DNA of 64,000 bases, from the NCBI GenBank assembly GCA_041665885.1, contig JBAYHY010000002.1, forward strand, positions 19,129-83,128, read 5' to 3'. Positions 36,353 to 53,373 of the stretch are shown one piece after another. The notes beneath the pieces are model-generated. The model saw only the letters and a program-made list of their open reading frames with translations. It was not told the DNA's origin and did no database searches. Numbering within the stretch: the stretch's first letter is position 1; each line of letters begins with the position of its first letter. This DNA is from Minisyncoccota bacterium (GTDB taxonomy: Bacteria > Patescibacteriota > Minisyncoccia > Phycocordibacterales > UBA9973). The position numbers and the translations under genes were made by a program.

Positions 36353-38593
36353 TTATAAATAAATTGTTTTTATTCCACTACTTTCCCCCTCTTTTTCTAG
36401 CAAATCAGCTGGAATATCGGAAATAAATTCAGACGGTGCGTTTATTTGGCGCGAGCCGAAAATGGTGCGGAAGTTCGCGAAGGATAAAAATAATTTTTCT
36501 TTTGCTCGAGTGAGGGCTACATAGAAAAGTCGTCTTTCTTCCTCTCTGTCTTCTCCTGTCTGTCCTTCGTTTTGCCTTTCGTGCGGGAAAAGCCCGTCTT
36601 CCATTCCGGTGACGAAAACATATTTAAATTCAAGGCCTTTTGACGCGTGCACGGTCATCAGCTTTATGGCACTGACTTCTTTTTTTTGTTTTTCTTCAGT
36701 AATCATTAATGAATCTTGGTCCGAGGCGAGCGAAGCATCTTCCAGAAGTTTTTCTATTCCGACACCACCTTCTAGGCTGTCGTATTTAATGGCCAGGGTT
36801 GCTAATTCCTTTATGTTTTCCAGTCTTTCCATGTCTTCTTCTCCCCCATTACTGAGTTCCTGTTCTATCCCTGATTTTTTGACCACAAATTTTATCGTGT
36901 CACTGGCTTTTGTTTTTTGAATTTTTTCTTTTATTTCTTCCAGGGTTTGATAAAAATTATCGACTTTTATTCTCACCTTTATCGGCAACTCTTCCTTTTT
37001 CCCGGTAAAAATTTTTGCCAAGGTGACTTTGCCGATGCCACGGGTTGGGAAATTGATAATTCTTTTTATGTCTGACAAGCTGTCTGGATTTAGGGCAGCC
37101 CGCAAATAGGCCAAGGTGTCTTTTATTTCTTTTCGTTCAAAAAATTTAACCCCGAGGACCTGATATGGAATATTGTAACGAAGCATCGCTTCCTCCAACG
37201 CGCGCGATTGAAAATTTGCGCGATAAAGAACGGCGACTTCGGGGAAAACATTCTCGGACTCACCACGAAAATTTTCTGCTGAAAATTTTCTCTGTCCGTC
37301 GCCGTCGCTCCTCCCAAGGGTTCGCTCGAGAGTGTTTTCCCCTTCGCCGGCGTAGTTTTTTCCAATTTTTTGTTCCCGAGGGTCCCACTTTGAGCCCGAA
37401 GCGCCCAAAGAAGGGCGCAGGGACAAAAAATTGGAAGAGACGAAGCCATCTCCATCAATAATTTCTAAAATTTTTGTCGCGACGTAGTCCGCTTCGTCGT
37501 TTTCGTCAAGCGCCTCATATAATCCTATTTTTTCACCCTCTACGTTGTCGGTAAATAAGTTTTTATCAGGCCTGTATACGTTTTTTTTGATTATTTCATT
37601 GGCTGCTTCCAGAATATTTTTGGTGGAGCGGTAATTTTGTTCCAATAAAATTATTTTTGCGTTCGGATAATCTTTTTCAAAATTTAAAATATTTTTTAGA
37701 TTTGCTCCGCGCCAGGAATAGATGTTCTGGTCCGCGTCTCCGACGACACAAATATTTTTATTATTTTCCGAAAGCAATTTTGTCATTAAATATTGCACCT
37801 CGTTCGTGTCTTGATACTCGTCCACATGGATATATTCCCATTTTTCTTGGTAAATTTTTCTGACTTCCTTGTTTTCCTTTAATAATTTTGTTGCTTTCAA
37901 AAGCAAGTCATCAAAATCAAGAGAATTTTCTTTCAGTTTTTGTTTTTCGTATAAGTTCCAAACCCGAGCGATTATTTGCCCCAGGGTATCTACCGCTCTT
38001 TCTGCGTAATCTTCCAAATGGGTGAATTTTCCTTTTTCTCTTGAAATTATATTTCTTATTTTTTTCGGATCATATTGTTTTGGGTCTATCCCGAGCTCCT
38101 TCAGAATATTTTTTATCAAGGTGACAGAATCCCCTTCATCCAAAATGGTGAAATATTTAGTTAAGCCCAATAATCGAGCATTTTCTTTTATGATATAAAC
38201 ACCCAGAGAATGGAAAGTGGAAACAAAGGGCTCTTCTGGATTTTTCGCGTAGCTTTTTTCAATTTTTTGATCCCGAGGGTCCCACTCGGTATCCCGAGAA
38301 GGGCGCAGGGACGAAAAATTGGAAGAAGCGAAGCTTTCTTTTATTGCAAAACTTATTCTCTCCCGCATTTCTTTGGCGGCCTTGTTGGTAAAGGTTACCG
38401 CCAGGATTTTGTCAGGAGAAACTCCCTCTTTTATCAGATTTACGATTCGGTGAGTGATGGTTTTTGTTTTACCCGCCCCTGCCCCCGCCACGACAAGAAG
38501 AGGGCCCTCTCGGTGCAGAGCAGCTTCTTTCTGTTCTTTATTTAGCCCTCTTAAGTGTTCTTTGTTTGTTTCCACCTTCTTAATATAGCACAA
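36353..38593 (-). CDS. UvrD/PcrA/Rep-family ATP-dependent DNA helicase containing three in-frame palindromic-element insertions
   Basis: Walker A AGAGAGKTKTITHRI, the ..VSTFHSLG.. motif, QDTNEVQY, and conserved C-terminal helicase motifs. Extra segments are present relative to PcrA: ~25 aa and ~60 aa. Confidence 0.9.
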   Translation of the reverse strand: MCYIKKVETNKEHLRGLNKEQKEAALHREGPLLVVAGAGAGKTKTITHRIVNLIKEGVSPDKILAVTFTNKAAKEMRERISFAIKESFASSNFSSLRPSRDTEWDPRDQKIEKSYAKNPEEPFVSTFHSLGVYIIKENARLLGLTKYFTILDEGDSVTLIKNILKELGIDPKQYDPKKIRNIISREKGKFTHLEDYAERAVDTLGQIIARVWNLYEKQKLKENSLDFDDLLLKATKLLKENKEVRKIYQEKWEYIHVDEYQDTNEVQYLMTKLLSENNKNICVVGDADQNIYSWRGANLKNILNFEKDYPNAKIILLEQNYRSTKNILEAANEIIKKNVYRPDKNLFTDNVEGEKIGLYEALDENDEADYVATKILEIIDGDGFVSSNFLSLRPSLGASGSKWDPREQKIGKNYAGEGENTLERTLGRSDGDGQRKFSAENFRGESENVFPEVAVLYRANFQSRALEEAMLRYNIPYQVLGVKFFERKEIKDTLAYLRAALNPDSLSDIKRIINFPTRGIGKVTLAKIFTGKKEELPIKVRIKVDNFYQTLEEIKEKIQKTKASDTIKFVVKKSGIEQELSNGGEEDMERLENIKELATLAIKYDSLEGGVGIEKLLEDASLASDQDSLMITEEKQKKEVSAIKLMTVHASKGLEFKYVFVTGMEDGLFPHERQNEGQTGEDREEERRLFYVALTRAKEKLFLSFANFRTIFGSRQINAPSEFISDIPADLLEKEGESSGIKTIYL
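37249..37340. repeat. Type 1 palindromic element (copy B) in frame in the helicase; encodes ..TLERTLGRSDGDGQRKFSAENFRGESENVFPE..
   Basis: ttctcggactcaccacgaaaattttctgctgaaaattttctctgtccgtcgccgtcgctcctcccaagggttcgctcgagag, with TIR ggggaaaacattctcg / cgagagtgttttcccc. Further copies at 48772, 52685 and 62547. Confidence 0.7.
37355..37445. repeat. Type 2 palindromic element (copy a) in frame in the helicase, adjacent to the Type 1 copy; encodes ..SSNFLSLRPSLGASGSKWDPREQKIGKNYAG..
   Basis: tccaattttttgttcccgagggtccc...gggcgcagggacaaaaaattggaaga; long inverted arms. Confidence 0.65.
38250..38335. repeat. Type 2 palindromic element (copy b) in frame near the helicase N-terminus; encodes ..SSNFSSLRPSRDTEWDPRDQKIEKSYA..
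   Basis: ttcaattttttgatcccgagggtcccactcggtatcccgagaagggcgcagggacgaaaaattggaag, ~85% identical to copy a in the same reading frame. PcrA has ~10 residues at this position. Confidence 0.65.
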
Positions 38594-41029: not shown

Positions 41030-41458
41030 TCACAAAATAATATCACTGACCACTTTTACTCTCGCCCTTTTTTCCTTTTGGCATAAATAAACAACCAAGA
41101 GATCTACTTGCCATTCTTTTTCGTCTGGCACCTTCTCGGACAACAAATATGTTTGAATTGTCCGAGACAACCTTTTTAGTTTCCAGGGGTGCATGTTGTC
41201 CTCGGGCCTGTGTTGGTATCTTTCGTCCGAATCATTATAAGACTTGGGGATAAAAGTATTCAATGTTTCTCGTGAAACGCTTTTTACTTCAACGAAATAT
41301 AGTTTGCCCTTCTTTTCCGCTATGATATCTATCTCTCCCCACTTCTTCGTATAGTTGCGGTCCAAAATAGAGAAATTATGTTTCACGAGAAACCTTGTGG
41401 CAATATTTTCCCCGATTTCTCCTATTTTTTGTGTTTCTGATGTAAATTTTTTCGGCAT
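41030..41458 (-). CDS. YraN/UPF0102-family (Holliday-junction-resolvase-like) endonuclease
   Basis: ..GEIGENIATRFLVKHNFSILDRNYTKKWGEIDIIAEKKGKLYFVEVKS.. fits the UPF0102 PD-(D/E)xK pattern. Confidence 0.6.
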   Translation of the reverse strand: MPKKFTSETQKIGEIGENIATRFLVKHNFSILDRNYTKKWGEIDIIAEKKGKLYFVEVKSVSRETLNTFIPKSYNDSDERYQHRPEDNMHPWKLKRLSRTIQTYLLSEKVPDEKEWQVDLLVVYLCQKEKRARVKVVSDIIL

Positions 41459-41535
41459 CCCGGTACTAAAATTTTAAGTTCTTAGTAATAATCGTTATAT
41501 ATTTTAATCAAAAATTTAGTACGGGACAAGTTTTA
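41459..41535 (-). promoter_or_regulatory. conserved inverted-repeat leader (copy 2 of 3) abutting the yraN-like start codon
   Basis: In gene orientation: ..ACTTGTCCCGTACTAAATTTTTGATT..(35 nt)..CTTAAAATTTTAGTACCGGG-ATG. Confidence 0.55.
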
Positions 41536-41566
41536 GTTAGTTTCACCTGAAACATGTTTCACGTGA
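41536..41566. promoter_or_regulatory. tandem palindromic sites GTTTCACCTGAAAC / GTTTCACGTGAAAC just upstream of the yraN-like leader
   Basis: Two adjacent 14-bp palindromes, the second a perfect one. Confidence 0.35.
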
Positions 41567-41687
41567 AACAAATCATCAAAATTATGTGTCTTTTATTAAA
41601 ATATCCTTATTTTACAACATATTTTAACTAAAAAGGGCACTCAAAGACAGCTTTTTGGTGTGTCCTTTATAAACATTACCCACATAG

Positions 41688-41696
41688 TTATCCACA
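41688..41696 (+). promoter_or_regulatory. perfect DnaA box TTATCCACA with an adjacent near-box TTACCCACA
   Basis: cccacatagttatccacag. Confidence 0.35.
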
Positions 41697-41770
41697 GTTA
41701 TTGTAAATATCCTTAGAATTTCATCTGGAATTCACTTTTCGGGCAGTTTTTATAAAGGACAACTGTTTTG

Positions 41771-41841
41771 TGCGGCCAGGGAGAATCGGACTCCCGTCTC
41801 ATCCTTGGCAAGGACGTGTTCTACCACTAAACCATGACCGC
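41771..41841 (-). tRNA. tRNA-Gly (anticodon GCC)
   Basis: Reverse complement gcggtca tg gttt agtggta gaac a cgtcc ttgccaa ggatg agac gggag tccgatt ctccc tggccgc A. Confidence 0.85.
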
Positions 41842-41856
41842 AATATTAGTATTATC

Positions 41857-41885
41857 TTGTAAAAAACTTGCTCCCAAATTATAAT
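41857..41885 (+). promoter_or_regulatory. sigma70-like promoter TTGTAA-17-TATAAT upstream of the HNH endonuclease gene
   Basis: Consensus-like hexamers with a 17-nt spacer, ~70 nt upstream of the ATG at 41957. Confidence 0.45.
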
Positions 41886-41956
41886 ATTTTTTTAACGTTA
41901 ATGCAATAATACTTCGAACATAGATTGTATTTCGAAGTTAATTGTGATAAAATCAA

Positions 41957-42394
41957 GTGATAATGAGATGTACAAAATGCAAAAAGGAAAAACTAGAGGA
42001 TGAATTCAATTTCAAAATAAAATCTAAGGGATTACGGCAATCGCAATGCAAGGTGTGCACTCGCTTATTAATAAGAAATCATTATAATAGAAATAAGGAA
42101 TATTATTTACAAAAAACCCACAAAAGAAATGCAGAATTAAAATCTAAAACATTCCTGTATTTAAAGGGTTTTTTAGCAAATAATCATTGTGTTGATTGTG
42201 GAGAGTCTGACATAACAGTCCTTGAGTTTGACCACAAAGGCAATATTCCCAAGTTTAGGGCAGTTTCGTCTTTAATGAAAAATCGGTATTCATTAGAAAA
42301 AATTAAAGAGGAAATTGCTAAATGCGAGGTTAGGTGCGCAAATTGTCATAGGAGAAAAACAGCAAGGGATTTTAAGTGGATTAAAAGTATTTAG
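41957..42394 (+). CDS. HNH endonuclease (zinc-finger-containing), stand-alone, between tRNA genes
   Basis: CTKCKK..C..C at the N-terminus and an HNH core ..CVDCGESDITVLEFDHKGN..ANCHRRKT. Confidence 0.6.
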   Translation: MIMRCTKCKKEKLEDEFNFKIKSKGLRQSQCKVCTRLLIRNHYNRNKEYYLQKTHKRNAELKSKTFLYLKGFLANNHCVDCGESDITVLEFDHKGNIPKFRAVSSLMKNRYSLEKIKEEIAKCEVRCANCHRRKTARDFKWIKSI

Positions 42395-42397
42395 AAG

Positions 42398-42472
42398 GCG
42401 CCCGTAGTTCAACGGATAGAACATCGATCTTCGGAATCGATGATGTGGGTTCAATTCCTGCCGGGCGCACCA
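42398..42472 (+). tRNA. tRNA-Arg (anticodon TCG) with encoded CCA
   Basis: gcgcccg ta gttc aacggat agaac a tcgat cttcgga atcga ... gtggg ttcaatt cctgc cgggcgc ACCA. Confidence 0.8.
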
Positions 42473-42481
42473 TAACATGTC

Positions 42482-44053
42482 ATGATGGAGAATTCTCTAA
42501 AAAACTTAATATCAAAAATACCCAAAGAAGTTTCACATGTAACAAGCACTCTTGAGAATGCCGGTTTTGAGGTATACCTCGTCGGAGGATGTGTTCGGGA
42601 TCTATTTTTAGACAGAGAGCCGAAAGACTGGGATATTACTACAAATGCCAAACCGGAACAAATCATTGCATTGTTTGAAAAAACCGTTTATGAAAATACT
42701 TTTGGTACGGTGGGGGTATGTTTGCCTGTTAATTTGAAGGACGGTGTTCCATGTGAAACGTCAGATAGTAGTGTTTCACGAGAAACGCCCGAATACAAGA
42801 TTATTGAGGTAACTCCCTATAGGGTTGAGGCAAAATATAGTGATTTTAGGCATCCCGATGAAGTAAAATTCAGTGAAAAGTTAGAAGATGACCTTAAAAG
42901 GCGTGATTTTACTGTTAATGCGATGGCCCTAAGTTCTAAAGGACAGCTTGTGGACTTGTTTGAGGGCGTAAAGGACATTGGTGACAAGATGTTGAAAGCG
43001 GTAGGGAACCCGGATGATCGTTTTGCCGAGGATGCTCTCCGGATGCTTCGAGCTGTCCGTTTCGCTTGCCAACTTAATTTTTCTGTGTCATATGAAACAA
43101 CGGAAAGTATTTTAAAAAATGCGAAGTTAATAAAAAAAATATCCGAAGAAAGAATTCGTGACGAGTTCATAAAAATAATTATGTCACCCAATCCGGCGGT
43201 TGGAATTGTGATGTTGCAGAAATTTAAAATACTCTTAAATGTAATTCCAGAGCTGGAGGAGGGAATCGGCTGTGAGCAATCTGGCGGACATATCTATGAC
43301 GTTTGGGAGCATTTATTGCATGCGGTGCAACATGCGGCAAACAAAAATTGGCCTTTAGAAATAAGGCTCTCTGCACTTTTCCACGATATTGGGAAACCGC
43401 GGTCAAGAAGGGAAACAAAAGATAAAACAAAAAAGAAATATACTTTTTACGGGCATGAAGTGGTGAGTGCGAGGATGACGAAAAAAATAATGGAAAGATT
43501 AAAATTTCCGAAAAAAGAAATTGATCTTGTGGAAAAATTAATTCGCAATCATATGTTTTTCTCCGACACTGAGCTCATTACTCTTTCTGCGGTGCGAAGA
43601 ATTATTTCCAAAGTCGGGAAAGAAAATATTTGGTCGCTAATGGACATGCGTGAGTCCGATAGGGTGGGCATGAAAAAGAAAGAAGCGCCTTACCGGTTAC
43701 GAAAATATTTTGCCATGATTGAGGAGTCCTTGAGAGACCCGATTTCTGTCGGACAGCTTAAGATAGACGGGGAATACATGATGAAAGAGCTCGAAATCAA
43801 ACCTGGACCACGAATGGGATGGATTTTGCATGCTTTGCTCGAAGAAGTGTTGGATGCTCCGGAGAAAAACACCGTAGAGCATTTGTCAGAATTGGTAAAA
43901 TCATTAAATGTTCTTGGAGACGACGAACTTTGCACCCTCGGCGAGCGCGGAAAAGAAAAAAAAGAAGAACTAGAGGAAGAAGAAGTATCAAAGCTTCACG
44001 AGAAGCACGGGGTGAGGTCGGGGAAAGGACCCGACCGCAAGGCCGGAGCCTGA
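42482..44053 (+). CDS. cca: CCA-adding tRNA nucleotidyltransferase (PolyA_pol head + HD domain) with a GC-rich C-terminal tail
   Basis: YLVGGCVRDLFLDREPKDWDITT (nucleotidyltransferase motif GxxxRD..D.D) and the HD motif ..HLLHAVQHA...LFHDIGKP. Confidence 0.85.
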   Translation: MMENSLKNLISKIPKEVSHVTSTLENAGFEVYLVGGCVRDLFLDREPKDWDITTNAKPEQIIALFEKTVYENTFGTVGVCLPVNLKDGVPCETSDSSVSRETPEYKIIEVTPYRVEAKYSDFRHPDEVKFSEKLEDDLKRRDFTVNAMALSSKGQLVDLFEGVKDIGDKMLKAVGNPDDRFAEDALRMLRAVRFACQLNFSVSYETTESILKNAKLIKKISEERIRDEFIKIIMSPNPAVGIVMLQKFKILLNVIPELEEGIGCEQSGGHIYDVWEHLLHAVQHAANKNWPLEIRLSALFHDIGKPRSRRETKDKTKKKYTFYGHEVVSARMTKKIMERLKFPKKEIDLVEKLIRNHMFFSDTELITLSAVRRIISKVGKENIWSLMDMRESDRVGMKKKEAPYRLRKYFAMIEESLRDPISVGQLKIDGEYMMKELEIKPGPRMGWILHALLEEVLDAPEKNTVEHLSELVKSLNVLGDDELCTLGERGKEKKEELEEEEVSKLHEKHGVRSGKGPDRKAGA

Positions 44054-44055
44054 CG

Positions 44056-44082
44056 AGGCGAGGAGGGCTCGCAAGATTTTTA
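44056..44082 (+). terminator. candidate intrinsic terminator after cca
   Basis: gcgaggagggctcgc hairpin followed by aagattttta. Confidence 0.35.
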
Positions 44083-44109
44083 GTAAAAAATACTTGTGAG
44101 AGGAAATAG

Positions 44110-45849
44110 CTAATAAACCTCCTGCTGGTAGCAACTCTCGCAATAGACTATTTCTGCTCGGTCGGGGGAGTAAGATGTTTCAAATTCATTTTTGCATTTT
44201 TTGTCACCATGGGTGTGGTTTTTCAACTCGCACATACAAGAGCGGCGCCACAGTGTTAGGGGATTTTTTTGTTTTAGCCTGTTGTAGTGTCGGCAATTTG
44301 GACACAATCTAGGTAATGGCAGGTCCATGCGTTTGTAAAACTGAAGCTCGTCGGGAGTTATTTTGAAAGCCTCGGTGCACACAGCCTCACAGTTTGCTTC
44401 TTCGTGATTATTTTTGTCGTGATGGGCGCAACCTATTACTTTTTCTAATATTTCCTCGCTAACGTTATCAGACAAATCTTCCGCTTTTATGTCGATTTTA
44501 TAATTTCTGGTTTCTTTTTCTTTCCATGGATACCCATTTTTAAGTGCCTCATCGTGGGTCAATGGAAAATTTTCTTGTACAGCTGTTTCGTTGTAGCAAA
44601 AAGGGGAGAATTCTGATGGGAAGAAATCACCATATACAAAGCTCTTACCATTTTTATCTTTATACGGCATGTCTTTCATGTGTTGTTTTATTTTTGGTAT
44701 TAATTCTTCATATTTCTCTTTAGTATATTGCTTATTTAAAATACAATATTTTTTCTTTTTTAGGCCTACACAACCAAACAAGTTGTCGACATTTTCGCAG
44801 GTATCACAATAAAAGGTATCAAAACAATGCCAGGCACAATAGCAACTGTGCGCGTTATTCAAGCTAATTGCGCTAACTATCTCGTGAGAAAGTTCACAAT
44901 TATCTACAACGACGTAACCATCCATGCAATCTTTCGCCTTATTACCATAATTTACATAATTACAATTTTCCAATAGATCAGAATTAAAAATATTATGAGA
45001 ATTTTTTGAACCAAAGATATAATCTCCTGAAATATCTATATTTTGCAGGCCGTGAACATACTTGACTGGGAAATTAAGCCAAAATTTCTTAGCCTTTTCC
45101 CTTGTTTCCATCATGTTTTTATACAAAGAAAACCCAATTTTTTCTTTTTCTTTCAAATACTCTTCTTTTGAGTATTGTTTGTTAAAAATACAATATTGTT
45201 GATTGCGTAAATTTACCGAAGCGATGCAGTCATGGCAATTTGAGCAATTTTTACAAAAATATAAATCCTGGGAATTTGAACAATCTTCTGAGAAGAGAAC
45301 ACGATAAGATTTTTTGCAGGTTATAGAATCATATAAAAATTCACATTCAGTAGAATTTAGAGAATCCATTGTATTTTTACAATTAAAAATATTGTGAGAA
45401 TACAGTGAGTCCTCGTTATGGTCGCTTACAAATATTAAATAACAATTTTTATTATAAGCAGCACCATTTACATAGTCGCTATTGTGGTTTTGAAAAACAA
45501 AAGCGTATAAACGGGGCACTTTTAGTTGAAGTTCACGAAATTGTTGTAAAAAAGGTTTTGAAAAATCTAAATCTAAACCATAGTCCGTTGCGTTCCAACC
45601 ATCTCCGTGGAAGCACTCATTGCAATAAACCTTGTATGGTTTGTCCTCGGAATATATAGTAATAATGTTTTTTTGGCACAGGTCGCATGTTCTTTTATAG
45701 AGACTTCTCTCGTTTCTCCAGTTCATTTTATTTTGCATTCTGCAGGTTGGACAGTAATTGGGCGTTTCAGTTTCTATTTTGGAATAAAAACCCAGCTCAT
45801 CTTTGGTGATTTCGAAATCCTTTTTACAGTTTTGGCAAATTTTTTGCAT
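44110..45849 (-). CDS. large Cys-rich protein with duplicated N- and C-terminal zinc-ribbon modules (MJ0042-like CxxC...F.IT.DEL.FY...CPxCR) and a repetitive Cys-containing middle region
   Basis: N-terminus ICQNCKKDFEITKDELGFY..YCPTCR. C-terminus CTEAFKITPDELQFYKRMDLPLPRLCPNCR. About 20 C..C / NC..C repeats between. Confidence 0.4.
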   Translation of the reverse strand: MQKICQNCKKDFEITKDELGFYSKIETETPNYCPTCRMQNKMNWRNERSLYKRTCDLCQKNIITIYSEDKPYKVYCNECFHGDGWNATDYGLDLDFSKPFLQQFRELQLKVPRLYAFVFQNHNSDYVNGAAYNKNCYLIFVSDHNEDSLYSHNIFNCKNTMDSLNSTECEFLYDSITCKKSYRVLFSEDCSNSQDLYFCKNCSNCHDCIASVNLRNQQYCIFNKQYSKEEYLKEKEKIGFSLYKNMMETREKAKKFWLNFPVKYVHGLQNIDISGDYIFGSKNSHNIFNSDLLENCNYVNYGNKAKDCMDGYVVVDNCELSHEIVSAISLNNAHSCYCAWHCFDTFYCDTCENVDNLFGCVGLKKKKYCILNKQYTKEKYEELIPKIKQHMKDMPYKDKNGKSFVYGDFFPSEFSPFCYNETAVQENFPLTHDEALKNGYPWKEKETRNYKIDIKAEDLSDNVSEEILEKVIGCAHHDKNNHEEANCEAVCTEAFKITPDELQFYKRMDLPLPRLCPNCRHYNRLKQKNPLTLWRRSCMCELKNHTHGDKKCKNEFETSYSPDRAEIVYCESCYQQEVY

Positions 45850-45976
45850 ATAATTTTATAATTATAACAATAAGTATGATTTTTCGCTCTTTTGAGCTCA
45901 TCAGTTAGGACACACATCCTAAAAAATCGGTTCGTATCGTGAACCACACGGATAGTTTTCGATATCAGCGATTATA

Positions 45977-46723
45977 TTAGTTTATCTTGGAGAGAGCTTC
46001 GCGTGTTTTTTGGATTCCTTTTTCCAGTCGTTCTCGCTTCCTGTCTTGCGCTGAGGGGAGTTCACTTTCCAGTTTGCTCAACTGCTTGGCGAGCAGATCC
46101 ATCTTGGTTTCATTGAACTCGCTGATGTCTGCACCAAGTTTTTGAAGTTGCTCGATGTTGTTTTGAAACTCGCTTAAATCAACGAGTTCGGTTTGGGCGT
46201 CGTTGTCCCAACATAATGGTGCAGGCTGTCGAAGTTTCCAGAGAAGGAATTCCTTCTCAGTGTCGAAGCGGTGTGTTTTGATGCGTGCAGGAATTTTTTT
46301 CATCCAACGTAGGTTTTCGGCCGTAAGATGAAAGTCGGCTGGTTCGTCGTCGAACTTCGCATATCGCACGAAGTCATCGACGAGTCGATCTGAGCAGTTG
46401 GGGTCGCGAAGCTCATTGGCTCCCATGAAGGACACCCTGTTGAACCTCTTGATCCACCCATCCATTCGCCGTTTCCAGAGAATGTGCGTGAAATGCGAAA
46501 GGCTGTGTACCCAGTAGCCATGCTGCTCGTGGCGATTCTCTCGCGTGCCGAGGAAAGCCTCGAGCGCCGCCTCCACCAAATCCGGCATGGATTTCTCCTC
46601 GCGCAGAACTACGAAGACAAACTCCTCGCTTTCATGATAGTTCTTTGTGCCCCTAACCATTTCAATGGCTTGGTTTGTTTTTCCGTCTTGAATGAGTCCC
46701 GTCAATTGGTCGTTCATTGTCAT
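45977..46723 (-). CDS. hypothetical protein (248 aa) in a GC-rich island, C-terminal coiled coil
   Basis: Local GC ~50% against ~35% in the flanks; codon usage unlike its neighbours. Overlaps the next gene by 4 nt, so likely an operon. Confidence 0.4.
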   Translation of the reverse strand: MTMNDQLTGLIQDGKTNQAIEMVRGTKNYHESEEFVFVVLREEKSMPDLVEAALEAFLGTRENRHEQHGYWVHSLSHFTHILWKRRMDGWIKRFNRVSFMGANELRDPNCSDRLVDDFVRYAKFDDEPADFHLTAENLRWMKKIPARIKTHRFDTEKEFLLWKLRQPAPLCWDNDAQTELVDLSEFQNNIEQLQKLGADISEFNETKMDLLAKQLSKLESELPSAQDRKRERLEKGIQKTREALSKIN

Positions 46724-47088
46724 CTCCTTTGAGTGAGGTTGCCTACGATCATTTTCAGATCGCTGGAGTTTCTGTTTGCTGTTCCGTCAACTTCCACGCC
46801 AACTTGATTGAACTGTTCTGCACCACCTCCACTGTTGGCGATGATGTTGCCGTTGTATCCTCCTTGACGGAGAGAACGGACAACATCAGCTCCGGTAATG
46901 TTTGTTTTTCCTAATCCATAACCCACAAGCACGACATCCGGTTCGAGGGCATTCACCATCTGGCAAGTTCGTTCGACAGAATCGAACTGTTCCAGGGGTA
47001 ACAGCTCATGGTTGCTTGCACAACCAGAGAGTTGCCATTGGCGGATTATTTCATTGGGTCGGTCGTCTATGAAAAAAACTCGCATCAT
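46720..47088 (-). CDS. stand-alone receiver (REC/CheY-like) domain protein in the GC-rich island
   Basis: MRVFFIDDRP..(Asp pocket)...DVVLVGYGLGKTNITGADVVRSL...NIIANSGG resembles a response-regulator receiver domain. Confidence 0.4.
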   Translation of the reverse strand: MMRVFFIDDRPNEIIRQWQLSGCASNHELLPLEQFDSVERTCQMVNALEPDVVLVGYGLGKTNITGADVVRSLRQGGYNGNIIANSGGGAEQFNQVGVEVDGTANRNSSDLKMIVGNLTQRR

Positions 47089-47229
47089 TTTTCTCTCCTT
47101 TCAAAAAACATTTTTCCTCTGAAAGTATAGCATATTAAAAATAATTGTCAAGAAATATAATCAAAATTTATTCAAAATAGTTTATTTTTAAAGCTTTAAA
47201 ATAGATAGTAAAAATTTTGTTCATACATA

Positions 47230-47257
47230 TTGACAAGTTTATAGGCATTATTATATA
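47230..47257 (+). promoter_or_regulatory. sigma70-like promoter TTGACA-16-TATATA placing the TSS at or next to the trmB-like ATG (leaderless)
   Basis: The -10 ends 10 nt before ATG 47268. Confidence 0.4.
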
Positions 47258-47267
47258 CTTAGAATAT

Positions 47268-48041
47268 ATGAATGAGAATTTAAGTTTTAAAAAATCTTTA
47301 GAATATATTGGTTTTAGCGAGAAGGAGGTTTTAGTATATTTAGCACTGCTAGAAATAGGCAGAGGGACAGTTACACAAATTTCTCGCAGGGCCGGAATTA
47401 ATCGCCCAACGGGGTATCATGTTTTGGCTTCACTTGAGGCAAAAGAGTTAATAAAAATTTCTGGCAAGGAGCCAAAACAAGAATATTTAGCAGAATCCCC
47501 AGAGCAAATTGAAAAATTACTTTTTAAAAAAATTGAAAATGACCAGGCCTTTATAGAGGAAGCAAGAAAAATTATTCCGGAATTGAAATCAATTCACAAT
47601 GTTGCTGATCGGCCCAGGGTTATGTTTTATGAAGGCAAGGAAGGAATTAAAAAAGTTTACGAGGATACACTGAGTTCAACTGAGCCAATACGAGCCTACG
47701 CCAGCGTAGGAGATATGCACGCTGGATTGCCAGGATATTTTCCAGATTATTATAAAAGAAGGGTTGGTAAGGGTATTTCAATACGAGCAATTGTGCCAAA
47801 AACAGAAGCAGGGATAGAACGTAAAAATTTAGATAGTAAAGAAATGAGGGAGACGGCATTGGTGCCTAAAGATGTTTTTAATTTCCACCCAGAAATAAAC
47901 ATTTATGACGACAAGGTGATGATTGCTTCTTGGCGGGAAAAACTAGGCATTATTATCGAGAGTACTGAAATAGCCGAGGCAATGAAAAAAATATACGAAC
48001 TTGCTTGGGCAGAGGCAAAAAGATTGGAAAAAAACAATTAG
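47268..48041 (+). CDS. TrmB-family HTH transcriptional regulator (start refined to MNENLSF)
   Basis: ..LEYIGFSEKEVLVYLALLEIGRGTVTQISRRAGINRPTGYHVLASLEAKELI matches the TrmB N-terminal winged helix. Confidence 0.55.
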   Translation: MNENLSFKKSLEYIGFSEKEVLVYLALLEIGRGTVTQISRRAGINRPTGYHVLASLEAKELIKISGKEPKQEYLAESPEQIEKLLFKKIENDQAFIEEARKIIPELKSIHNVADRPRVMFYEGKEGIKKVYEDTLSSTEPIRAYASVGDMHAGLPGYFPDYYKRRVGKGISIRAIVPKTEAGIERKNLDSKEMRETALVPKDVFNFHPEINIYDDKVMIASWREKLGIIIESTEIAEAMKKIYELAWAEAKRLEKNN

Positions 48042-48718
48042 TCCGCAAAATGGCCCTTGGTGTCTTCGCCAAAGAAGAGATGGTGGAGATTTTTTAGGGC
48101 ACTTTCGAAAAGGCGGGTGCTGTAGGAAGAAAGGTTAAAAATTACTGCCAGGGTAAGCAGGACAATAGCAAACTCAATACTTATATAACTAAAGGGGATG
48201 GCGAGAAGAGCAAAAAATACCGGAACAAGGGTGCGAATGGTGCTACCACGGATTTCTCTTTTGCTTATTTCTGGATTTTGAATATGGGGGGAAAAGAGAA
48301 CGTATCTGCGCATCCAATACAAAGTAAGACCAATAAGAATGGTGTGAACGCCGAAGATTATTACCGATAATTCATTCTTGTTATATTGACCGAGGACGCT
48401 AGCGGAAAAGGGGACCAAGCTTATCAACATGAAAAATAGAGCATTAATATTGGTGAGCATTGGGTCCACGTTTTTCGCATAGACAGAAACGAAAAAGTGA
48501 TGGGCTCGCCAATAGGTAAAAAGAATGGCAAAACTTAGGACGTAACTCAAAAGGAGGGGAAAGAGCTTTTCGAGTTGGAGCCAAAGCCCCATATTGTCTA
48601 TCGGCCCCCAAATAGCTGGTAATCTTATCTCAAAAACGAGAATCGTCATCACTATCGCGAAGATGCTATCGGATAGTTGATCTAATCTTGCGTGGTTCAT
48701 ATGTAAATAATAGCACAC
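48038..48718 (-). CDS. DUF1211/TMEM175-like membrane protein (putative K+ channel family)
   Basis: RLDQLSDSIFAIVMTILVFEI at TM1 (the R.e.fSDgvfAIaiTLLvlei signature); six TM helices. Confidence 0.5.
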   Translation of the reverse strand: MCYYLHMNHARLDQLSDSIFAIVMTILVFEIRLPAIWGPIDNMGLWLQLEKLFPLLLSYVLSFAILFTYWRAHHFFVSVYAKNVDPMLTNINALFFMLISLVPFSASVLGQYNKNELSVIIFGVHTILIGLTLYWMRRYVLFSPHIQNPEISKREIRGSTIRTLVPVFFALLAIPFSYISIEFAIVLLTLAVIFNLSSYSTRLFESALKNLHHLFFGEDTKGHFAD

Positions 48719-48771
48719 AATTTACCGCATTATCAATTTTTGCTCAACAACAGATTAAAAACAAATGTTTA

Positions 48772-48837
48772 TTCACCACGAAAATTTTCTGCTAAAAATT
48801 TTCTCTGTCCGTCGCCGTCGCTCCTCCCAAGGGTTCA
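48772..48837. repeat. Type 1 palindromic element, truncated intergenic copy (A), between the divergent TMEM175-like and murI genes
   Basis: ttcaccacgaaaattttctgctaaaaattttctctgtccgtcgccgtcgctcctcccaagggttca. Confidence 0.65.
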
Positions 48838-48876
48838 TAAATATTCGTTTTTAATCTGCCATGTTATATTGTAAGT

Positions 48877-49743
48877 ATGAAAAAAAGAGAAGGAATGAAT
48901 CCCGTTAGGGGCCGCGAGGGCTCGCAGCGACCCTCTGCCTCTAACGGGATGAAAATCGGGATTTTTGATTCAGGACTTGGTGGACTAATAGTCACCAGGT
49001 CAATCGTGAAAGCGATGCCGGAATATGATTATGTATATTTGGGGGACACCAAAAGAGTGCCCTATGGCAACCGTTCTCATGATGCAGTTTTTGAATTTAC
49101 CAGAGAATGTGTGGACTATCTTTTTCGTAAAGAAAATTGCGCGATAGTGGTCGTGGCTTGCAACACCGCTTCGGCCAGAGCGCTCCGAAGAATTCAGCAG
49201 GAATATTTACCGAAAAATTTCCCGGAGAGAAAGGTCCTGGGGGTTTTAATTCCTGCGGCGGAAGAGTGTGTAAAATTTAAAAGAATTGGAGTTTTAGGAA
49301 CTGCGGGCACGGTTGCCTCGAATACTTTCCTGAGAGAAATTCTCAAGTTAAATAAAAAAGTGAGGATTTTTCAAAACGCGGCCCCGATGTTGGTGCCCCT
49401 GGCAGAAGAAGGGGAGGAGAAAAACGTGGCCCCATTTATAAAAAAATACTTACAGCCGTTCTTAAACAAAAAATTAGATGTTTTGGTTTTGGGTTGTACT
49501 CATTATCCTTTATTTAAAAGCCAAATTAAAAAGTTGTTACCGGGCGGCGTGAAAATTATTTCCCAGGATGAAATAATACCAAGAAAATTAAAAGATTATT
49601 TGATAAGACATACTGAAATTAGGGCAAGACTTTCCCAAAAGGGAACTAGAAAGATTTTAGTAACCGATATAACAAAAAACGTAGAAAAACTTTCCCAAAA
49701 ATGGTTTGGGCCGAAGGCAAAACCTAAATTAGTAGAAGTATAA
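48877..49743 (+). CDS. murI: glutamate racemase, with a 24-aa N-terminal extension encoded by a GC-rich palindrome (conserved start probably at 48949, MKIGIF)
   Basis: MKIGIFDSGLGGLIV..., ..VVACNTAS.., ..LGCTHYP... Extension MKKREGMNPVRGREGSQRPSASNG is encoded by the palindrome at 48898..48952. Confidence 0.9.
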   Translation: MKKREGMNPVRGREGSQRPSASNGMKIGIFDSGLGGLIVTRSIVKAMPEYDYVYLGDTKRVPYGNRSHDAVFEFTRECVDYLFRKENCAIVVVACNTASARALRRIQQEYLPKNFPERKVLGVLIPAAEECVKFKRIGVLGTAGTVASNTFLREILKLNKKVRIFQNAAPMLVPLAEEGEEKNVAPFIKKYLQPFLNKKLDVLVLGCTHYPLFKSQIKKLLPGGVKIISQDEIIPRKLKDYLIRHTEIRARLSQKGTRKILVTDITKNVEKLSQKWFGPKAKPKLVEV

Positions 49744-49875
49744 AAAACTCGTCGCAGGTGTAGTTTTTATGAAACATTGCGCAGGCGGGTAGCCGAGCAT
49801 AGTAAATTTTCAGTAGAAAATTATACGTGTTGAACAAAAACTATACAAAGAAAGAGTTTTGTAACTACAACGAGT

Positions 49876-50640
49876 TTATAATTCAATCCAAATAGGGCAA
49901 TGGTCTGAGCCGTAATATTTGTTTAGCATACCGACTCCTTTGATTTTGGGAACGATTTTTGTGTCAGCGAAAAAATAATCCAACCGCCAGCCGACATTTC
50001 GGTCTCGGGAGCGAGTTTTTTGATCCCAGTAAGTGTAAGCACCTATTTTATCCGGATAAAAAATTCGAAAAGTGTCGGCAAAGTTATTTTTAATTACTTT
50101 ATCAATCCAGGCGCGCTCAATGGGCAGGAAGCCAGTGTTTTCCACGTTTTCCTTGGGCCTGGCTAGGTCTACCGCCCTGTGGGCGGTGTTTACGTCCCCG
50201 CAGAAAATTACCTTTTCACTATTCTTGCGAAGTTTCAAAATGAATTTTAAAAAAGCGTCGTAAAATTCTAATTTATATTTTAACCTTTCCGGGCCCTGGC
50301 CCCCATTCGGAAAATATCCGTTGATAATAGTAAAATTTTTGAATTTGACCCCGATCAACCGTCCCTCGTCGTCTAGTTTTTTGATTCCCATTCCGTAAAA
50401 AACTTCTTTTGGTTTTTCTTTGGTATAAATTGCTACTCCGCTGTAGCCTTTTTTTGTTTTGGGATGCGAAAAATAGGAAAAATAGCCAGGAATGTTTTTA
50501 ACTTCTTCCGGCAATTGTGCTGGCTCTGCTTTGGTTTCTTGTAAACACAAAACATCGGGGCGCTCATCAAAAAGAGGAGTAAAAAATCCTTGTTTGGCGG
50601 TGGCCCGCAGGCCGTTTGTGTTCCAGGAAAGTATTTTCAT
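49876..50640 (-). CDS. xth: exodeoxyribonuclease III / AP endonuclease
   Basis: MKILSWNTNGLRA..PDVLCLQETKA, ..GDVNTAHRAVD.., C-terminal ..SDHCPIWIEL. Confidence 0.9.
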   Translation of the reverse strand: MKILSWNTNGLRATAKQGFFTPLFDERPDVLCLQETKAEPAQLPEEVKNIPGYFSYFSHPKTKKGYSGVAIYTKEKPKEVFYGMGIKKLDDEGRLIGVKFKNFTIINGYFPNGGQGPERLKYKLEFYDAFLKFILKLRKNSEKVIFCGDVNTAHRAVDLARPKENVENTGFLPIERAWIDKVIKNNFADTFRIFYPDKIGAYTYWDQKTRSRDRNVGWRLDYFFADTKIVPKIKGVGMLNKYYGSDHCPIWIEL

Positions 50641-50649
50641 TTGGTTTTG

Positions 50650-51300
50650 CTATTTATTTTTTTGGAAAAGTGTTTCGAGCAATACCACTCCGTCGTTTTT
50701 GGTGGCAAGGCTTGTTCCTTGAGAAATCGTTTCTAATTTTCCCGAAAAAACACTTTTCATTTCAGCCTTTTCAAAAAAATGATAATGAATTCCGTATTTT
50801 TCAAAATCTTTCTCGGTGCTACCCTTGGGCGAGAATTCGAAAAAATGGCCTGTCTCGGCGGAAAGAGAAACATTAAAATAAAAACCACCCGGCTTCAGAA
50901 CTCGATTTACTTCACTCGCATATTTTTCCCAATCGTTTTTGTATAAAGTTTCGAAAAGGCCGAAATCACAAGCTGCGTCAAAACTAGCGTCTGGAAAGGG
51001 AATAGATAGAGCGTCCGCTTCTACGAATTTTACCCGGCCCTCGAGTTTCCAGTCCATGATGTCGCCGTTTGCTTTGTTAACAATGTCGCCGTCAAAATCA
51101 ATGCCGATTACCTTGAAGCCCATTTCAGCTAAATGTTTTGCCAAAAAACCACGTCCTGAGCCAATGTCTAGGATATATGCATTGGGGGATAGTTTTTCCG
51201 TGAGTTTTAAGCTTTCTCTGTCGGTGTATGGGTGGGTCCAAGCATCTGTTCCGGTTTTATAAGCGGCGTTAAAATGTTTTTTGTGTTCTTGATAGTCCAT
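50650..51300 (-). CDS. class I SAM-dependent methyltransferase
   Basis: Motif I YILDIGSGRGFLAKHLAEMGFKVIGIDF. Confidence 0.75.
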   Translation of the reverse strand: MDYQEHKKHFNAAYKTGTDAWTHPYTDRESLKLTEKLSPNAYILDIGSGRGFLAKHLAEMGFKVIGIDFDGDIVNKANGDIMDWKLEGRVKFVEADALSIPFPDASFDAACDFGLFETLYKNDWEKYASEVNRVLKPGGFYFNVSLSAETGHFFEFSPKGSTEKDFEKYGIHYHFFEKAEMKSVFSGKLETISQGTSLATKNDGVVLLETLFQKNK

Positions 51301-51361
51301 ATATTTATTATACCCGGTAGTGAGATTTTTAACAAAATTCTACTGCCGGGTTATACTATTT

Positions 51362-52282
51362 TTACCTTTTTGAATGAAATTTTTTATGAATGTCTCGCAA
51401 TTGTTTGTCTGTGACGTGGGTATATATTTGAGTTGTGCCGATGTTCGCATGGCCGAGCATCATCTGGACCGAGCGAAGGTCTGCTCCGTTGCCCAAGAGG
51501 TCCGTGGCGAACATGTGGCGCATTACGTGAGGGGTCACTTTTTTTGAAATACCAGCCTTGATTGCATGTTGTTTTACTATTCTTTCTATGGACCGGCGGG
51601 TTAGGGGAGTGTTGTTCGTTTTTTTTGAAATTTTATTGTCTATCTGTACAAAAAGTGCCTCGCTCATGTCTTTGCGGGCCGATAAATAATTTTTTACATA
51701 TTTTTTTGCCTCGTCTGAAATAAAAACTACTCGTATTTTTCCACCCTTGCCGCGGATAGACAATTCATCTGAATGTAAATCAATATCGGAATTTAGTGAA
51801 CATAGTTCTGAAACACGGAGCCCGGTAGAAAACAAAAGTTCTAAAATTGCTTTATCTCGCAAATCTTTTAAAGTATTTCCTTTAGGTGAGTCCAATAATC
51901 TAGAGAGTTCGGTGCGGGTGATGAGATCGAGAGAGCGTTCTCCGACCCTGGCTAATTCTATTTGTTCCGCGGACATACACTGGATGCCTCTTTTCGTTAG
52001 ATATTTTAAAAAAACTCGAAGAGCAATCATGTAATAGTTTTGGGTTTTTTTAGAAACAGTATCTCCGGTTCTGCGGTTGTTGCCGGTGACTTGTCTGTTT
52101 AGCCACAAGCGGAATTCTCTTACGGAAGAATCTGTAATATCCGGCGCTTCTGTTATTTTCCCGAATTCAAAATAGCGAGTGAGATAGTGTTCGTAATTTT
52201 CTATGGTTCGCAAAGCAGAACCTTTTTCAATTTCTAGATATTCGAGAAATTCACGCTTCAGTTTTTCGATTTCTGTCGCCAT
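51362..52282 (-). CDS. tyrosine recombinase, XerC/XerD family
   Basis: N-terminal SAM-like domain. Catalytic R..(ELSRL)..K..HVMRHMFAT..R..LGHANIGTTQIYTHV with the Tyr nucleophile. Confidence 0.85.
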   Translation of the reverse strand: MATEIEKLKREFLEYLEIEKGSALRTIENYEHYLTRYFEFGKITEAPDITDSSVREFRLWLNRQVTGNNRRTGDTVSKKTQNYYMIALRVFLKYLTKRGIQCMSAEQIELARVGERSLDLITRTELSRLLDSPKGNTLKDLRDKAILELLFSTGLRVSELCSLNSDIDLHSDELSIRGKGGKIRVVFISDEAKKYVKNYLSARKDMSEALFVQIDNKISKKTNNTPLTRRSIERIVKQHAIKAGISKKVTPHVMRHMFATDLLGNGADLRSVQMMLGHANIGTTQIYTHVTDKQLRDIHKKFHSKR

Positions 52283-52375
52283 AAGACAATTTTAGCACAC
52301 TATCAAATACCTGCCCCGTACCAAGCTTGCTTTGGTTCGGGGTTTGGCGACACGGCTGGGTTTTTCTTCCTGGGC

Positions 52376-52404
52376 TTGCAAATTATGGTAGTTTATGCTA
52401 ATAT
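52376..52404 (+). promoter_or_regulatory. sigma70-like promoter TTGCAA-17-TAATAT placing the TSS at the rpsO ATG (leaderless)
   Basis: The -10 ends 7 nt before ATG 52412. Confidence 0.4.
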
Positions 52405-52411
52405 AACAAGC

Positions 52412-52675
52412 ATGTTAGCAAAAAAGAAAAAACAAACAGTGATTAAGAAAAATCAGATTCACGAGACGGATACCGGTTCTCCGGAAGTGCAAGTGGCTGT
52501 TTTGTCTATGCAAATTGATGCTTTGGCTAAACATTTAAAGAAACACAAGAAGGATAACCATTCTCGCCGAGGACTAATCAAGATGGTGGCTGATAGACGT
52601 ACGCATTTGAAATATCTAGAACGCAAAGATAAGTCTCGCTACACTTCTCTAATGAAGAAAATGGATTTAGCCTAG
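52412..52675 (+). CDS. rpsO: 30S ribosomal protein S15 (start refined to MLAKKKK)
   Basis: ..GSPEVQVAVLSMQIDALAKHLKKHKKDNHSRRGLIKMVADRRTHLKYL matches S15. Confidence 0.9.
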   Translation: MLAKKKKQTVIKKNQIHETDTGSPEVQVAVLSMQIDALAKHLKKHKKDNHSRRGLIKMVADRRTHLKYLERKDKSRYTSLMKKMDLA

Positions 52676-52684
52676 TGTTTTCGT

Positions 52685-52804
52685 AAAATATTCTCGGACT
52701 CACCACAAAAATCTTCTGCTGAAGATTTTTTCTGTCCGGCGCCGTTCAGAAAATGTACTCCCAGCACATTTCTGCTACCAAGGGTTCGCTCGAGAATATT
52801 TTAC
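52685..52804. repeat. Type 1 palindromic element, full-length intergenic copy (E), with 15-bp TIRs and an extra internal hairpin, between rpsO and the NYN gene
   Basis: TIRs gtaaaatattctcgg ... cgagaatattttac. Core is homologous to the copies at 37249, 48772 and 62547. Confidence 0.7.
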
Positions 52805-52863
52805 TTCAACCGTGCTATAATCAACTAGGTTGAATTTTTAATATTTTTATAAGTAATTTTTAT

Positions 52864-53373
52864 ATGACAGTAATAAAACATAAAGAACAAAGAGTTGGGG
52901 TTTTTATTGATACGCAAAATTTATATCACTCTGCCCGCAACTTATATCAGGCACGAGTGAATTTCGGTGCGGTTTTGAAGGATGCGGTGGCGGGCAGGAA
53001 GCTCGTGCGGGCGGTGGCCTATGTGATTACCACGGAGGCCGGAGACGAAAAGAATTTTTTTGAGGCTTTGGAGAAACTTGGGATAGAAACAAAGACGAAG
53101 GATTTACAAATATTCGCAGGTGGAGCAAAAAAGGCGGACTGGGATGTCGGCCTAGCCGTAGATGCGATCAAAATGTCTCCCCGTCTAGACTCGGTGGTAA
53201 TTGTTTCCGGGGATGGTGATTTTATTCCATTAGTAGAATATTTACAGACCAATGGAGTGCAGGTGGAAGTCGTTTCCTTCGGCAAATCAACTTCCGGGAA
53301 ACTTCGTGAAGCAGTAGATGATTTTGTGGATCTTTCAGAAAATCCTAGAAAGTATTTAATGAACGTCAAATAA
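52864..53373 (+). CDS. NYN-domain (LabA/YacP-like) protein, predicted RNase
   Basis: ..RVGVFIDTQNLYHSAR...LVRAVAYV..DVGLAVDAI...VIVSGDGDFIPLV fits NYN. Confidence 0.65.
   Translation: MTVIKHKEQRVGVFIDTQNLYHSARNLYQARVNFGAVLKDAVAGRKLVRAVAYVITTEAGDEKNFFEALEKLGIETKTKDLQIFAGGAKKADWDVGLAVDAIKMSPRLDSVVIVSGDGDFIPLVEYLQTNGVQVEVVSFGKSTSGKLREAVDDFVDLSENPRKYLMNVK

Follow-up and report, generated by a model that had tools for sequence, protein, structure and literature searches.

The DNA analysed here, hereafter the window (W), is a stretch of 64,000 nucleotides of contig JBAYHY010000002.1 (GCA_041665885.1) from a Minisyncoccota bacterium, a member of the Paceibacterota within the candidate phyla radiation (CPR); the contigs or loci compared with it carry L numbers, and the proteins P numbers. 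Between a host gene for a 579-amino-acid (aa), Cys-rich, Zn-ribbon-like protein and a divergently transcribed host gene for a TrmB-family regulator lies a GC-rich insert with two minus-strand genes, one for a small protein with a receiver fold and one for a larger, helical protein (Table 1). An initial annotation, made from the letters of the sequence alone, had placed at 45880–47110 an abrupt rise in GC and an overlapping gene pair next to a TrmB regulator, probably acquired horizontally. These claims hold: the coordinates were essentially right, with comparison to empty sites in sister genomes now setting the edges at 45850 and 47123; the two open reading frames (ORFs) overlap by 4 nt (ATGA); and the product of the adjacent plus-strand gene (47217/47268..48041) matches Pfam TrmB at 3.6e-14. 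Acquisition by horizontal transfer is very probable.

The argument for acquisition is carried by relatives in which the same site is empty. Sister genomes were located through the 579-aa protein, which is widespread in Paceibacteria (more than 6,500 homologous clusters, in Giovannonibacteria, Yanofskybacteria, Nomurabacteria and others) and is rich in CxxC pairs, yet has no Pfam or NCBIfam family. In four independent sister lineages (L019/L020, L023/L024, L025 and L033), the TMEM175–TrmB–Zn-ribbon gene order is kept, the gap between the TrmB and Zn-ribbon genes measures 100–166 bp and the pair is absent. The Zn-ribbon orthologues are 77% (L023/L024), 73% (L019/L020), 72% (L025), 70% (L021) and 60% (L022) identical to that of the window, and the TrmB orthologues beside the empty sites 78% (L023/L024) and 81% (L019/L020). 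The empty sites keep a promoter, TTGACA-N16/17-TATACT, at a distance of 8–9 nt from the Zn-ribbon ATG; in the window, what comes after this promoter (P1; kept in L019, L023 and L021) is the pair and not the host ATG, the insert standing in place of the 8–9 nt that the sister genomes have between −10 box and ATG. Because relatives have nothing at that exact spot, the segment is best understood as a horizontal gain, and its patchy distribution, differing genomic contexts and recovery in independent assemblies point the same way. The TrmB gene was considered as a part of the island and rejected: its orthologues (78–81% identical) adjoin empty sites, and the host gene is therefore older than the insertion.

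Table 1 Features of the insert and its immediate surroundings (window coordinates).
Feature	Position	Strand	Description and basis
Whole insert	45850..47123	-	1,274 bp; aligned to empty sites L019/L020, L023/L024, L025 and L033; composition outlier
Host promoter P1	47124..47151	-	TTGACA-16-TATACT, TG ahead of the −10 box; promoter scan, 11/12 matches
Left end of insert, 35-nt 5' leader (TTCAGAGG...)	47089..47123	-	strong Shine-Dalgarno AAAGGAG
Small gene	46720..47088	-	122-aa ORF; pseudo-receiver, 121 aa from ATG at 47085
Large gene	45977..46723	-	248-aa ORF; 246 aa from ATG at 46717; own AAAGGAG
Intrinsic-terminator-like hairpin	45919..45946	-	TGGTTC-ACGATAC-GAACCG, then T-run; terminator scan
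Right end of insert	45850..45918	-	extended −10 TGTTATAAT, TATAAT 45861-45866; homologous segment in L021
Host TrmB-family gene (context)	47217..48041	+	divergent; probable leaderless start ATG 47268; promoter 47230-47259
Host 579-aa Cys-rich Zn-ribbon-like gene (context)	44110..45849	-	promoter taken over by insert

Two further relatives have other cargo in the slot. That of L021 (1389–1975) holds an unannotated 111-aa ORF (1528–1863; GC 0.45 versus 0.39), and that of L022 (4829–6000) two unrelated small AT-rich ORFs of 183 and 96 aa. The window and L021 have both cargo flanks in common, namely the first bases of the leader on the left (TT..CAGAG, by alignment) and ~120 bp on the right that include the hairpin GTTCACGATACGAAC, despite the window being closer to the empty-slot genomes than to L021. 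The slot of L032 is filled too, but what it holds is a paralogue of the Zn-ribbon gene in tandem with it, and a reading as cargo was rejected.

Chimeric assembly or contamination, a worry already voiced in the initial annotation, would account for the abrupt compositional change at both edges. However, both edges coincide with functional boundaries (the −10 box on one side, the ATG on the other), and three other samples yielded contigs in which the region from the TrmB to the Zn-ribbon gene, with both junctions, is 100% identical over 2.9–3.1 kb; one of these contigs has a length of 101.5 kb. A chimeric origin can thus be considered effectively refuted.

In composition, the insert (45850–47123) stands at ~49% GC against a window mean of ~39%. 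In 300-bp windows, GC is 0.47–0.55 across 46000–47050 and 0.24–0.36 in the immediate flanks, and the 1-kb bin 46001–47000 reaches 0.496 (window mean ~0.39). Measured in island-sized sliding windows of 1,106 bp, the island has a GC of 0.492 (z +2.6), a level attained by only 0.4% of such windows, all of which fall in the island or in the metK region near 62 kb. In tetranucleotide usage it departs from the remainder of the window further than any other stretch of that size (z +5.5), none of which reaches 95% of its distance, whereas the metK region is not deviant by this measure. The gene metK itself (S-adenosylmethionine synthetase; 61906–63072) is the sole other stretch of ~50% GC (GC 0.497; GC at third codon positions (GC3) 0.527), part of which is contributed by a repeat element inserted in it. 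At the level of codons, the large gene has a GC3 of 0.586 (z +3.5; host mean 0.382, s.d. 0.059, over 54 window genes), and the small gene, at 0.463 (z +1.4), is less extreme. Under a host model of synonymous codons, the large gene has the lowest and the small gene the third lowest likelihood of the 54, both being only ~2 s.d. out. The different codon usage claimed at the outset thus stands as atypical usage, but is modest in size and includes a preference for C over T that is common to native metK.

The pair is sparsely distributed. At 90% identity, the large protein forms 80 clusters in a collection of 5.8 billion proteins, compared with the >6,500 of its 579-aa host neighbour, and at 50% identity it forms 195 clusters among 1.84 billion protein representatives. 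Among 185,579 species genomes, 11 loci were found, all in CPR or probably misbinned, by a scan for peptide patterns, in which divergent members can escape notice. Loci are labelled Portnoybacteria, Paceibacterota, Uhrbacteria, Saccharibacteria and unclassified Patescibacteria. One contig, L018, bears the label ‘Methylobacter’; its TrmB-like neighbour shares 91% identity with that of the Patescibacteria contig L017, and misbinning is therefore almost certain. One further protein pair (P0019/P0109) is labelled Planctomycetaceae; its neighbours are CPR-like, and it too is probably misbinned. The small protein was not found in a scan of viral contigs. Genomic contexts differ between genomes, and in L003 a tRNA gene lies 95 bp downstream of the pair. 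The pair is not ubiquitous in sister genomes with matching composition, the pattern that the initial annotation had set against acquisition: the closest sisters lack it, and it is GC-rich in low-GC hosts too. In nearly all of these it is 10–15 percentage points richer in GC than its surroundings (GC3 0.52–0.66 versus 0.33–0.49 for the host), and in contigs of 50–59% GC (L053, L051, L007, L012 and L018) its composition is that of the host. This pattern of sequence composition suggests a home pool in higher-GC CPR lineages, from which the pair would move into low-GC ones.

A divergent TrmB-family gene lies directly upstream of the pair not only in the window but also in L053 (2786–4861), L017 (5029–6879) and L018 (5032–6879), and a TrmB-like gene heads the pair-bearing gene array in L005/L006 (L005:2601–7157). 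This association could reflect regulation by TrmB-type repressors, or divergent promoter regions could be preferred landing sites for promoterless cargo.

If the pair were instead native and vertically inherited, its high GC would stem from amino-acid or codon selection, and the sisters would have lost it. Several observations weigh against acquisition and lend themselves to this account. Whatever the GC of the host, the pair nearly always has a high GC3, which in every low-GC host could reflect selection, not recent transfer. Its preference for C over T at two-fold sites resembles that of native metK (0.66 versus 0.58). The distant relative L053 has the same TrmB–pair arrangement, albeit with a divergent, non-orthologous TrmB-like gene, and its pair identities (56–78%) are similar to those of host genes (50–70%), so that ancient presence with repeated loss is conceivable. 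Also to be set against the preferred reading are the reach of the peptide-pattern scan and the plainness of the site: a search for direct or inverted repeats flanking the insert ends gave only chance-level short matches, and no integrase, tRNA, target-site duplication or terminal repeats mark the window insert. The nearest tRNA is 3.4 kb away, for which reason tRNA adjacency was rejected for the window, and the only recombinase near the insert is an Xer-like tyrosine recombinase (51362–52282) with counterparts in two sister contigs. By contrast, the four closer lineages have intact empty sites in which the host promoter abuts the host ATG, so that vertical inheritance needs at least four precise losses; among W, L053, L017 and L005, the TrmB proteins beside the pair share only 22–28% identity and are not orthologous; the island, and not metK, is the top tetranucleotide outlier; and the family is extremely sparse. 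Vertical inheritance is accordingly judged improbable, and acquisition remains the account that we prefer.

The anatomy of the insert points to how an acquired pair might be expressed. The likelier start of each gene is its second ATG, as in public annotations, giving proteins of 121 and 246 aa. As the insert lies between the host −10 box and the host start codon, the pair would use the captured promoter: a promoterless two-gene cassette would have landed in a slot that related Paceibacterota genomes keep empty or fill with other cargo, and would be transcribed from a host promoter region divergent with that of the TrmB-family gene. The terminator-like hairpin closes the transcript of the pair, and its core, GTTCACGATACGAAC, also occurs in L021 downstream of the different cargo gene. 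Beyond it, 11 nt upstream of the Zn-ribbon ATG, the right end carries a −10 element that we infer to be a replacement promoter (P2), so that the 3' end of the cassette would supply the displaced host gene with both a terminator and a substitute −10 element. A dispersed-repeat nature of GTTCACGATACGAAC was considered and rejected: the window has a single copy, L021 is the only other place where it occurs, and it does not accompany the pair in other hosts. When the non-coding sequences on either side of the pair were compared across 12 loci, nothing was common to them beyond the AAAGGAG ribosome-binding site and a terminator hairpin, and a scan of the window and the array contigs (below) with Rfam returned tRNAs only.

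Host genes around the island look leaderless, with a −10 box followed 8–11 nt on by the ATG and without a Shine-Dalgarno sequence (47259–47270; 45847–45866; L019:5985–6003); the likely TrmB start at 47268, for example, is only 8 nt beyond the −10 box of a promoter that mirrors P1. Both island genes have a strong AAAGGAG, like their homologues in other hosts. Between the TrmB gene and the pair, both of the divergent −35 boxes lie within a 40-nt imperfect inverted repeat (47145–47236; 73% complementary), a candidate operator for the TrmB-family regulator. This repeat was also considered as one bounding the insert and rejected as such, since it consists of the two divergent −35 regions.

Elsewhere the pair is found in a setting that invites a different account of its mobility. 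In three unrelated contigs it lies in same-strand arrays of small ORFs without family matches (L006:1543–4980, with L005:4569–7268; L007:5520–11470; L051:780–4870). Each array ORF is followed by a 70–95-nt module with array-specific, imperfect outer inverted repeats (CCCACCCGAGC...GCTCAGGTGGG in L007; CCCTCACTCCAG...CTGAAGTGAGGGG in L051; GGGGAAGC..GCTTCCCC plus CTCAATCAAG...TTGACAGAG in L006) around a variable hairpin centre, and L005 and L006, otherwise 96–99% identical, differ by exactly one module and one 204-aa gene. The pair might therefore be one cassette of an integron-like mobile system in CPR, inserted in a site-directed manner beside a TrmB-divergent promoter, although we consider this improbable. 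The system, previously undescribed and itself a long shot, would stack promoterless genes or pairs head-to-tail at such a promoter and gain or lose them one module at a time. At the end of each gene would stand an imperfect palindrome, variable in its centre and specific to the array, in an analogue of integrons without canonical attC or IntI of which the window would be the minimal, one-cassette case; this elaboration is equally doubtful. The different cargo of L021 and L022 in the window slot, the flanks common to the cargo of W and L021, and the divergent TrmB-like gene ahead of the pair or its array in four independent contexts all fit such a system. However, neither the modules nor the window hairpin (GGTTC-N7-GAACC) show, judged by eye, the canonical attC AAC/GTT boxes (R''/R', RYYYAAC...GTTRRRY); no IntI integrase is in view, the tyrosine recombinase near the insert being Xer-like; the 3' motif is single-copy in the window; the modules could be elements of the repetitive extragenic palindromic type (one such contig has a Y1 transposase gene) or duplicated terminators; and homologous recombination between repeats explains the L005/L006 difference equally well. 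In L006, the gene after the pair (4975–5547) encodes a 190-aa protein with a receiver-like N-terminus that keeps an Asp at the acceptor position (MKILVIDDNP...VALIDLFLP; sub-threshold Pfam E 0.006).

Set beside known genomic islets and integron cassettes, the acquired insert of the window is likewise promoterless cargo just downstream of a resident promoter, with alternative cargo in the slot, foreign composition and a patchy distribution; it differs from integron cassettes in having no attC or attI, IntI, target-site duplication, terminal repeats, tRNA or mobility gene at the site. The islet is of an ordinary kind, a small insert acquired horizontally, but its documentation is unusually clean. 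With known empty sites, base-resolved edges, and captured and replacement promoters, it offers a clean example of gene gain in reduced CPR genomes, and the recurrence of TrmB-divergent promoters and module-separated arrays hints at an organised flow of accessory genes in CPR.

The small protein had been described as a stand-alone REC domain. Its match to Pfam Response_reg (PF00072; 19.2 bits, E 0.0015) is below the cut-off of 30.2, and its best NCBIfam match, to EvgA, reaches 20 bits against a cut-off of 251. The AlphaFold2 model, built with 38 homologues, is nonetheless confident (predicted local distance difference test score (pLDDT) 95.8) and has the five-strand, five-helix layout of a receiver, with strands and helices alternating. 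A Foldseek search of the PDB gave 63 matches at E ≤ 1e-3, of which the best 50 listed are almost all receiver domains (template-modelling score (TM) 0.6–0.76); the neighbours include EvgA, NarL, PhoP, DesR and DivK, and the pseudo-receiver FrzS at TM 0.73–0.76. Directly after β3 (residues 51–54), in the position opposite Asp52 of EvgA in a profile alignment, lies Gly55, and the phospho-acceptor position is occupied by Gly, in one case Ala, throughout the 38 homologues of the alignment and the 17 fusions. In the alignment D7/D8 are invariant and S85 nearly so; the conserved-Lys position appears to be that of the nearly invariant R105, as assigned by secondary-structure register and not by superposition. 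In distant fused members, the second Asp of the DD pair becomes Asn, His or Gln. Because a receiver fold is combined with an invariant Gly in place of the phospho-acceptor Asp, the small protein is, by the reading of its sequence, an aspartate-less pseudo-receiver that cannot be phosphorylated at the usual Asp position. What stands of the earlier description is the confident receiver fold; the sub-threshold Pfam match and the missing phospho-Asp make it a pseudo-receiver.

Identity within the family is 45–82%, and the invariant residues cluster in the β1–α1, β3–α3 and β4–α4 loops, which form the ‘active-site’ face of receivers; the α1–β2 loop is also conserved, with a nearly invariant Cys22 and His26. 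This invariant face implies that it is still under selection, though not for phosphorylation. The bearing on two-component proteins in CPR that the initial annotation had attached to the gene is lost, as a pseudo-receiver says nothing on two-component signalling. Neither a histidine kinase nor an HPt protein is annotated among the genes at 41030–53373 (checked within ~5 kb), which include a UPF0102 protein, the CCA-adding enzyme, the Zn-ribbon protein, TrmB, TMEM175, glutamate racemase, exonuclease III, a methyltransferase, the Xer-like recombinase and an NYN protein; an ORF at 41957–42394 has no family match.

Aspartate-less receivers (ALRs) are defined by a receiver fold without a phosphorylatable Asp (PMC4395418, PMC12632262), and a survey of them lists no characterised member with Gly at the acceptor position (PMC4395418). 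Pseudo-receivers are common, their modes of action in bacteria are largely obscure, and those that are known act through phosphorylation-independent routes such as ligand or redox sensing (PMC12632262). The small protein has the same (βα)5 fold without phospho-acceptor Asp as FrzS, the KaiA N-terminal domain, the CikA PsR domain and RitR (reviewed in PMC12632262 and PMC4395418), and by this likeness would be expected to act by protein–protein contacts or ligand binding, not phosphorylation. Unlike these domains, it is a stand-alone protein of ~121 aa and not part of a larger regulator, falls below the PF00072 threshold, has Gly at the Asp position while keeping the DD pair and Ser, has an obligate partner that is encoded adjacently or fused to it, and is mobile and restricted to CPR. 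It is a new and divergent pseudo-receiver, and with its partner provides a compact, highly conserved test case for what the receiver scaffold does once phosphorylation has been abandoned.

The large protein had been called a coiled-coil protein of unknown function. This fits its C-terminal third, a helical hairpin, but what is conserved is a helical core of a novel kind, in which His, Cys, Trp and Arg residues are invariant. The AlphaFold2 model (pLDDT 96.5) is all-helical apart from a small β-hairpin, and consists of four short N-terminal helices arranged in hairpins, the helical core (residues ~45–162), the β-hairpin and the C-terminal helical hairpin (181–245). The core bears the motif HGxWVHSxSHF...C..R, which in the window protein reads HGYWVHSLSHF...W...W...G...C108..R111; in the alignment, H66, W69, V70, H71, S74, W81, W88, G99, C108 and R111 are invariant, and H75, E102 and D105 nearly so. 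Several orthologues and the short fusions lack the C-terminal hairpin, which is hence dispensable in some lineages, so that the minimal conserved unit consists of the pseudo-receiver and core residues ~26–162. Foldseek gave no significant match in the PDB (best E 0.057, TM below 0.4) or in BFVD, no Pfam, NCBIfam, PADLOC or PHROG family was matched, and a profile search of PDB sequences with the family alignment was discarded because it returned only coiled-coil noise. The protein represents a new family, and its fold is not one that can be recognised. In the model, one helical turn separates H71 from H75 and C108 stands at the N-terminus of a helix; a metal site would be a reasonable guess. 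A second, stand-alone paralogue of the core domain is encoded at L018:7832–8464, 1 kb downstream of the fused gene of that contig.

The two genes are tightly coupled. Eleven of the 12 two-gene loci keep one gene order, in which the genes are spaced by −4 to +3 nt; in the Saccharibacteria locus L013 the order is reversed, the large gene coming first at a distance of ~190 nt, and L015, also from Saccharibacteria and cut at a contig end, may be reversed too. At least 17 database proteins, in addition to loci L017 and L018, are natural single-chain fusions of the two. An apparent 368-aa ‘fusion’ in L014 proved to be an artefact of ORF calling in a different frame and was discarded; those of L017, L018 and the database proteins are genuine. 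This strict coupling and the many natural fusions are strong evidence, at the level of sequence, that the two proteins form one physical and functional unit.

We think it rather probable that, taken together, the pair is an acquired cassette whose products form an obligate complex independent of phosphorylation. The pseudo-receiver and its helical partner would associate stably and without phosphotransfer, with the conserved face of the former (D7, D8, G55–L58 and N84/S85) docking the conserved His-bearing helix of the latter in the way receivers dock HPt or DHp helices, and the assembly may contain a metal ion or serve in sensing a ligand or redox changes. The metal and docking details may apply, but we hold them to be much less likely than the reading as a whole. 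There are precedents in single-domain regulators (CheY, Spo0F, DivK and CpdR) and their helical partners (CheZ, Rap and Spo0B/ChpT/HPt), in which a receiver-fold protein of ~120 aa is likewise encoded with a helical partner, and true receivers use for His-bearing helices the very face that is conserved in the small protein; RapH–Spo0F is among the non-significant PDB fold matches of the large protein. However, the small protein has no phosphorylatable Asp, no histidine kinase is annotated nearby, and the large protein bears no significant structural likeness to HPt, DHp, CheZ or Rap.

The main functional rival is a selfish or conflict module, similar to toxin–antitoxin or anti-phage systems, in which the small pseudo-receiver would neutralise, or sense for, an enzymatic helical effector, and in which mobility and patchiness would reflect addiction or defence dynamics. 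The tightly overlapping operon, patchy distribution, variable context and occurrence among arrays of small unknown genes (L005/L006, L007 and L051) are in keeping with this, the invariant His, Cys, Ser and Arg of the large protein could, from conservation, be catalytic, and 17 of 57 family members have weak N-terminal matches to EAD11 (PF19964), an adaptor domain of conflict systems. These matches are, however, below threshold (15–16 bits against a cut-off of 26), very short (the first ~22 residues, one quarter of the profile) and from closely related sequences; the window protein has none, and we treat them as a lead, not as membership. No family match to type II toxin–antitoxin or defence systems was obtained in PADLOC, PHROGs, Pfam or NCBIfam: the small protein has only an insignificant CARF-like match in PADLOC (E 0.028), and neither protein is significant in PHROGs. 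None was seen in viral contigs. The neighbours in the window are housekeeping genes and not a defence island; the small protein is up to 82% identical between hosts, unlike fast-evolving defence or antitoxin proteins, and has no DNA-binding antitoxin domain; and frequent stable fusion is uncommon for toxin–antitoxin pairs. A conflict function is thus unlikely, though worth bearing in mind.

The window also contains repeats away from the insert. A GC-rich family of ~90–100 nt with the hairpin GAAAATTTTC..GAAAATTTTC has copies at 37240–37338, 48753–48851, 52680–52802 and 62535–62633, and partial ones near 59725 and 60718. Two of the copies are intergenic, and two lie inside intact genes, for a UvrD-like helicase (36353–38593) and metK (61906–63072), where the Pfam matches break; their position suggests in-frame insertions resembling, by analogy, the palindromic elements of Rickettsia. 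Two further repeats of 70–80 nt, each in two copies that are 85–90% identical, are found at 16289–16368/41456–41535 and 53538–53607/63575–63644, the former being an imperfect palindrome (CCCAGTACTAAAATTTT...AAAAATTTAGTACGGG).

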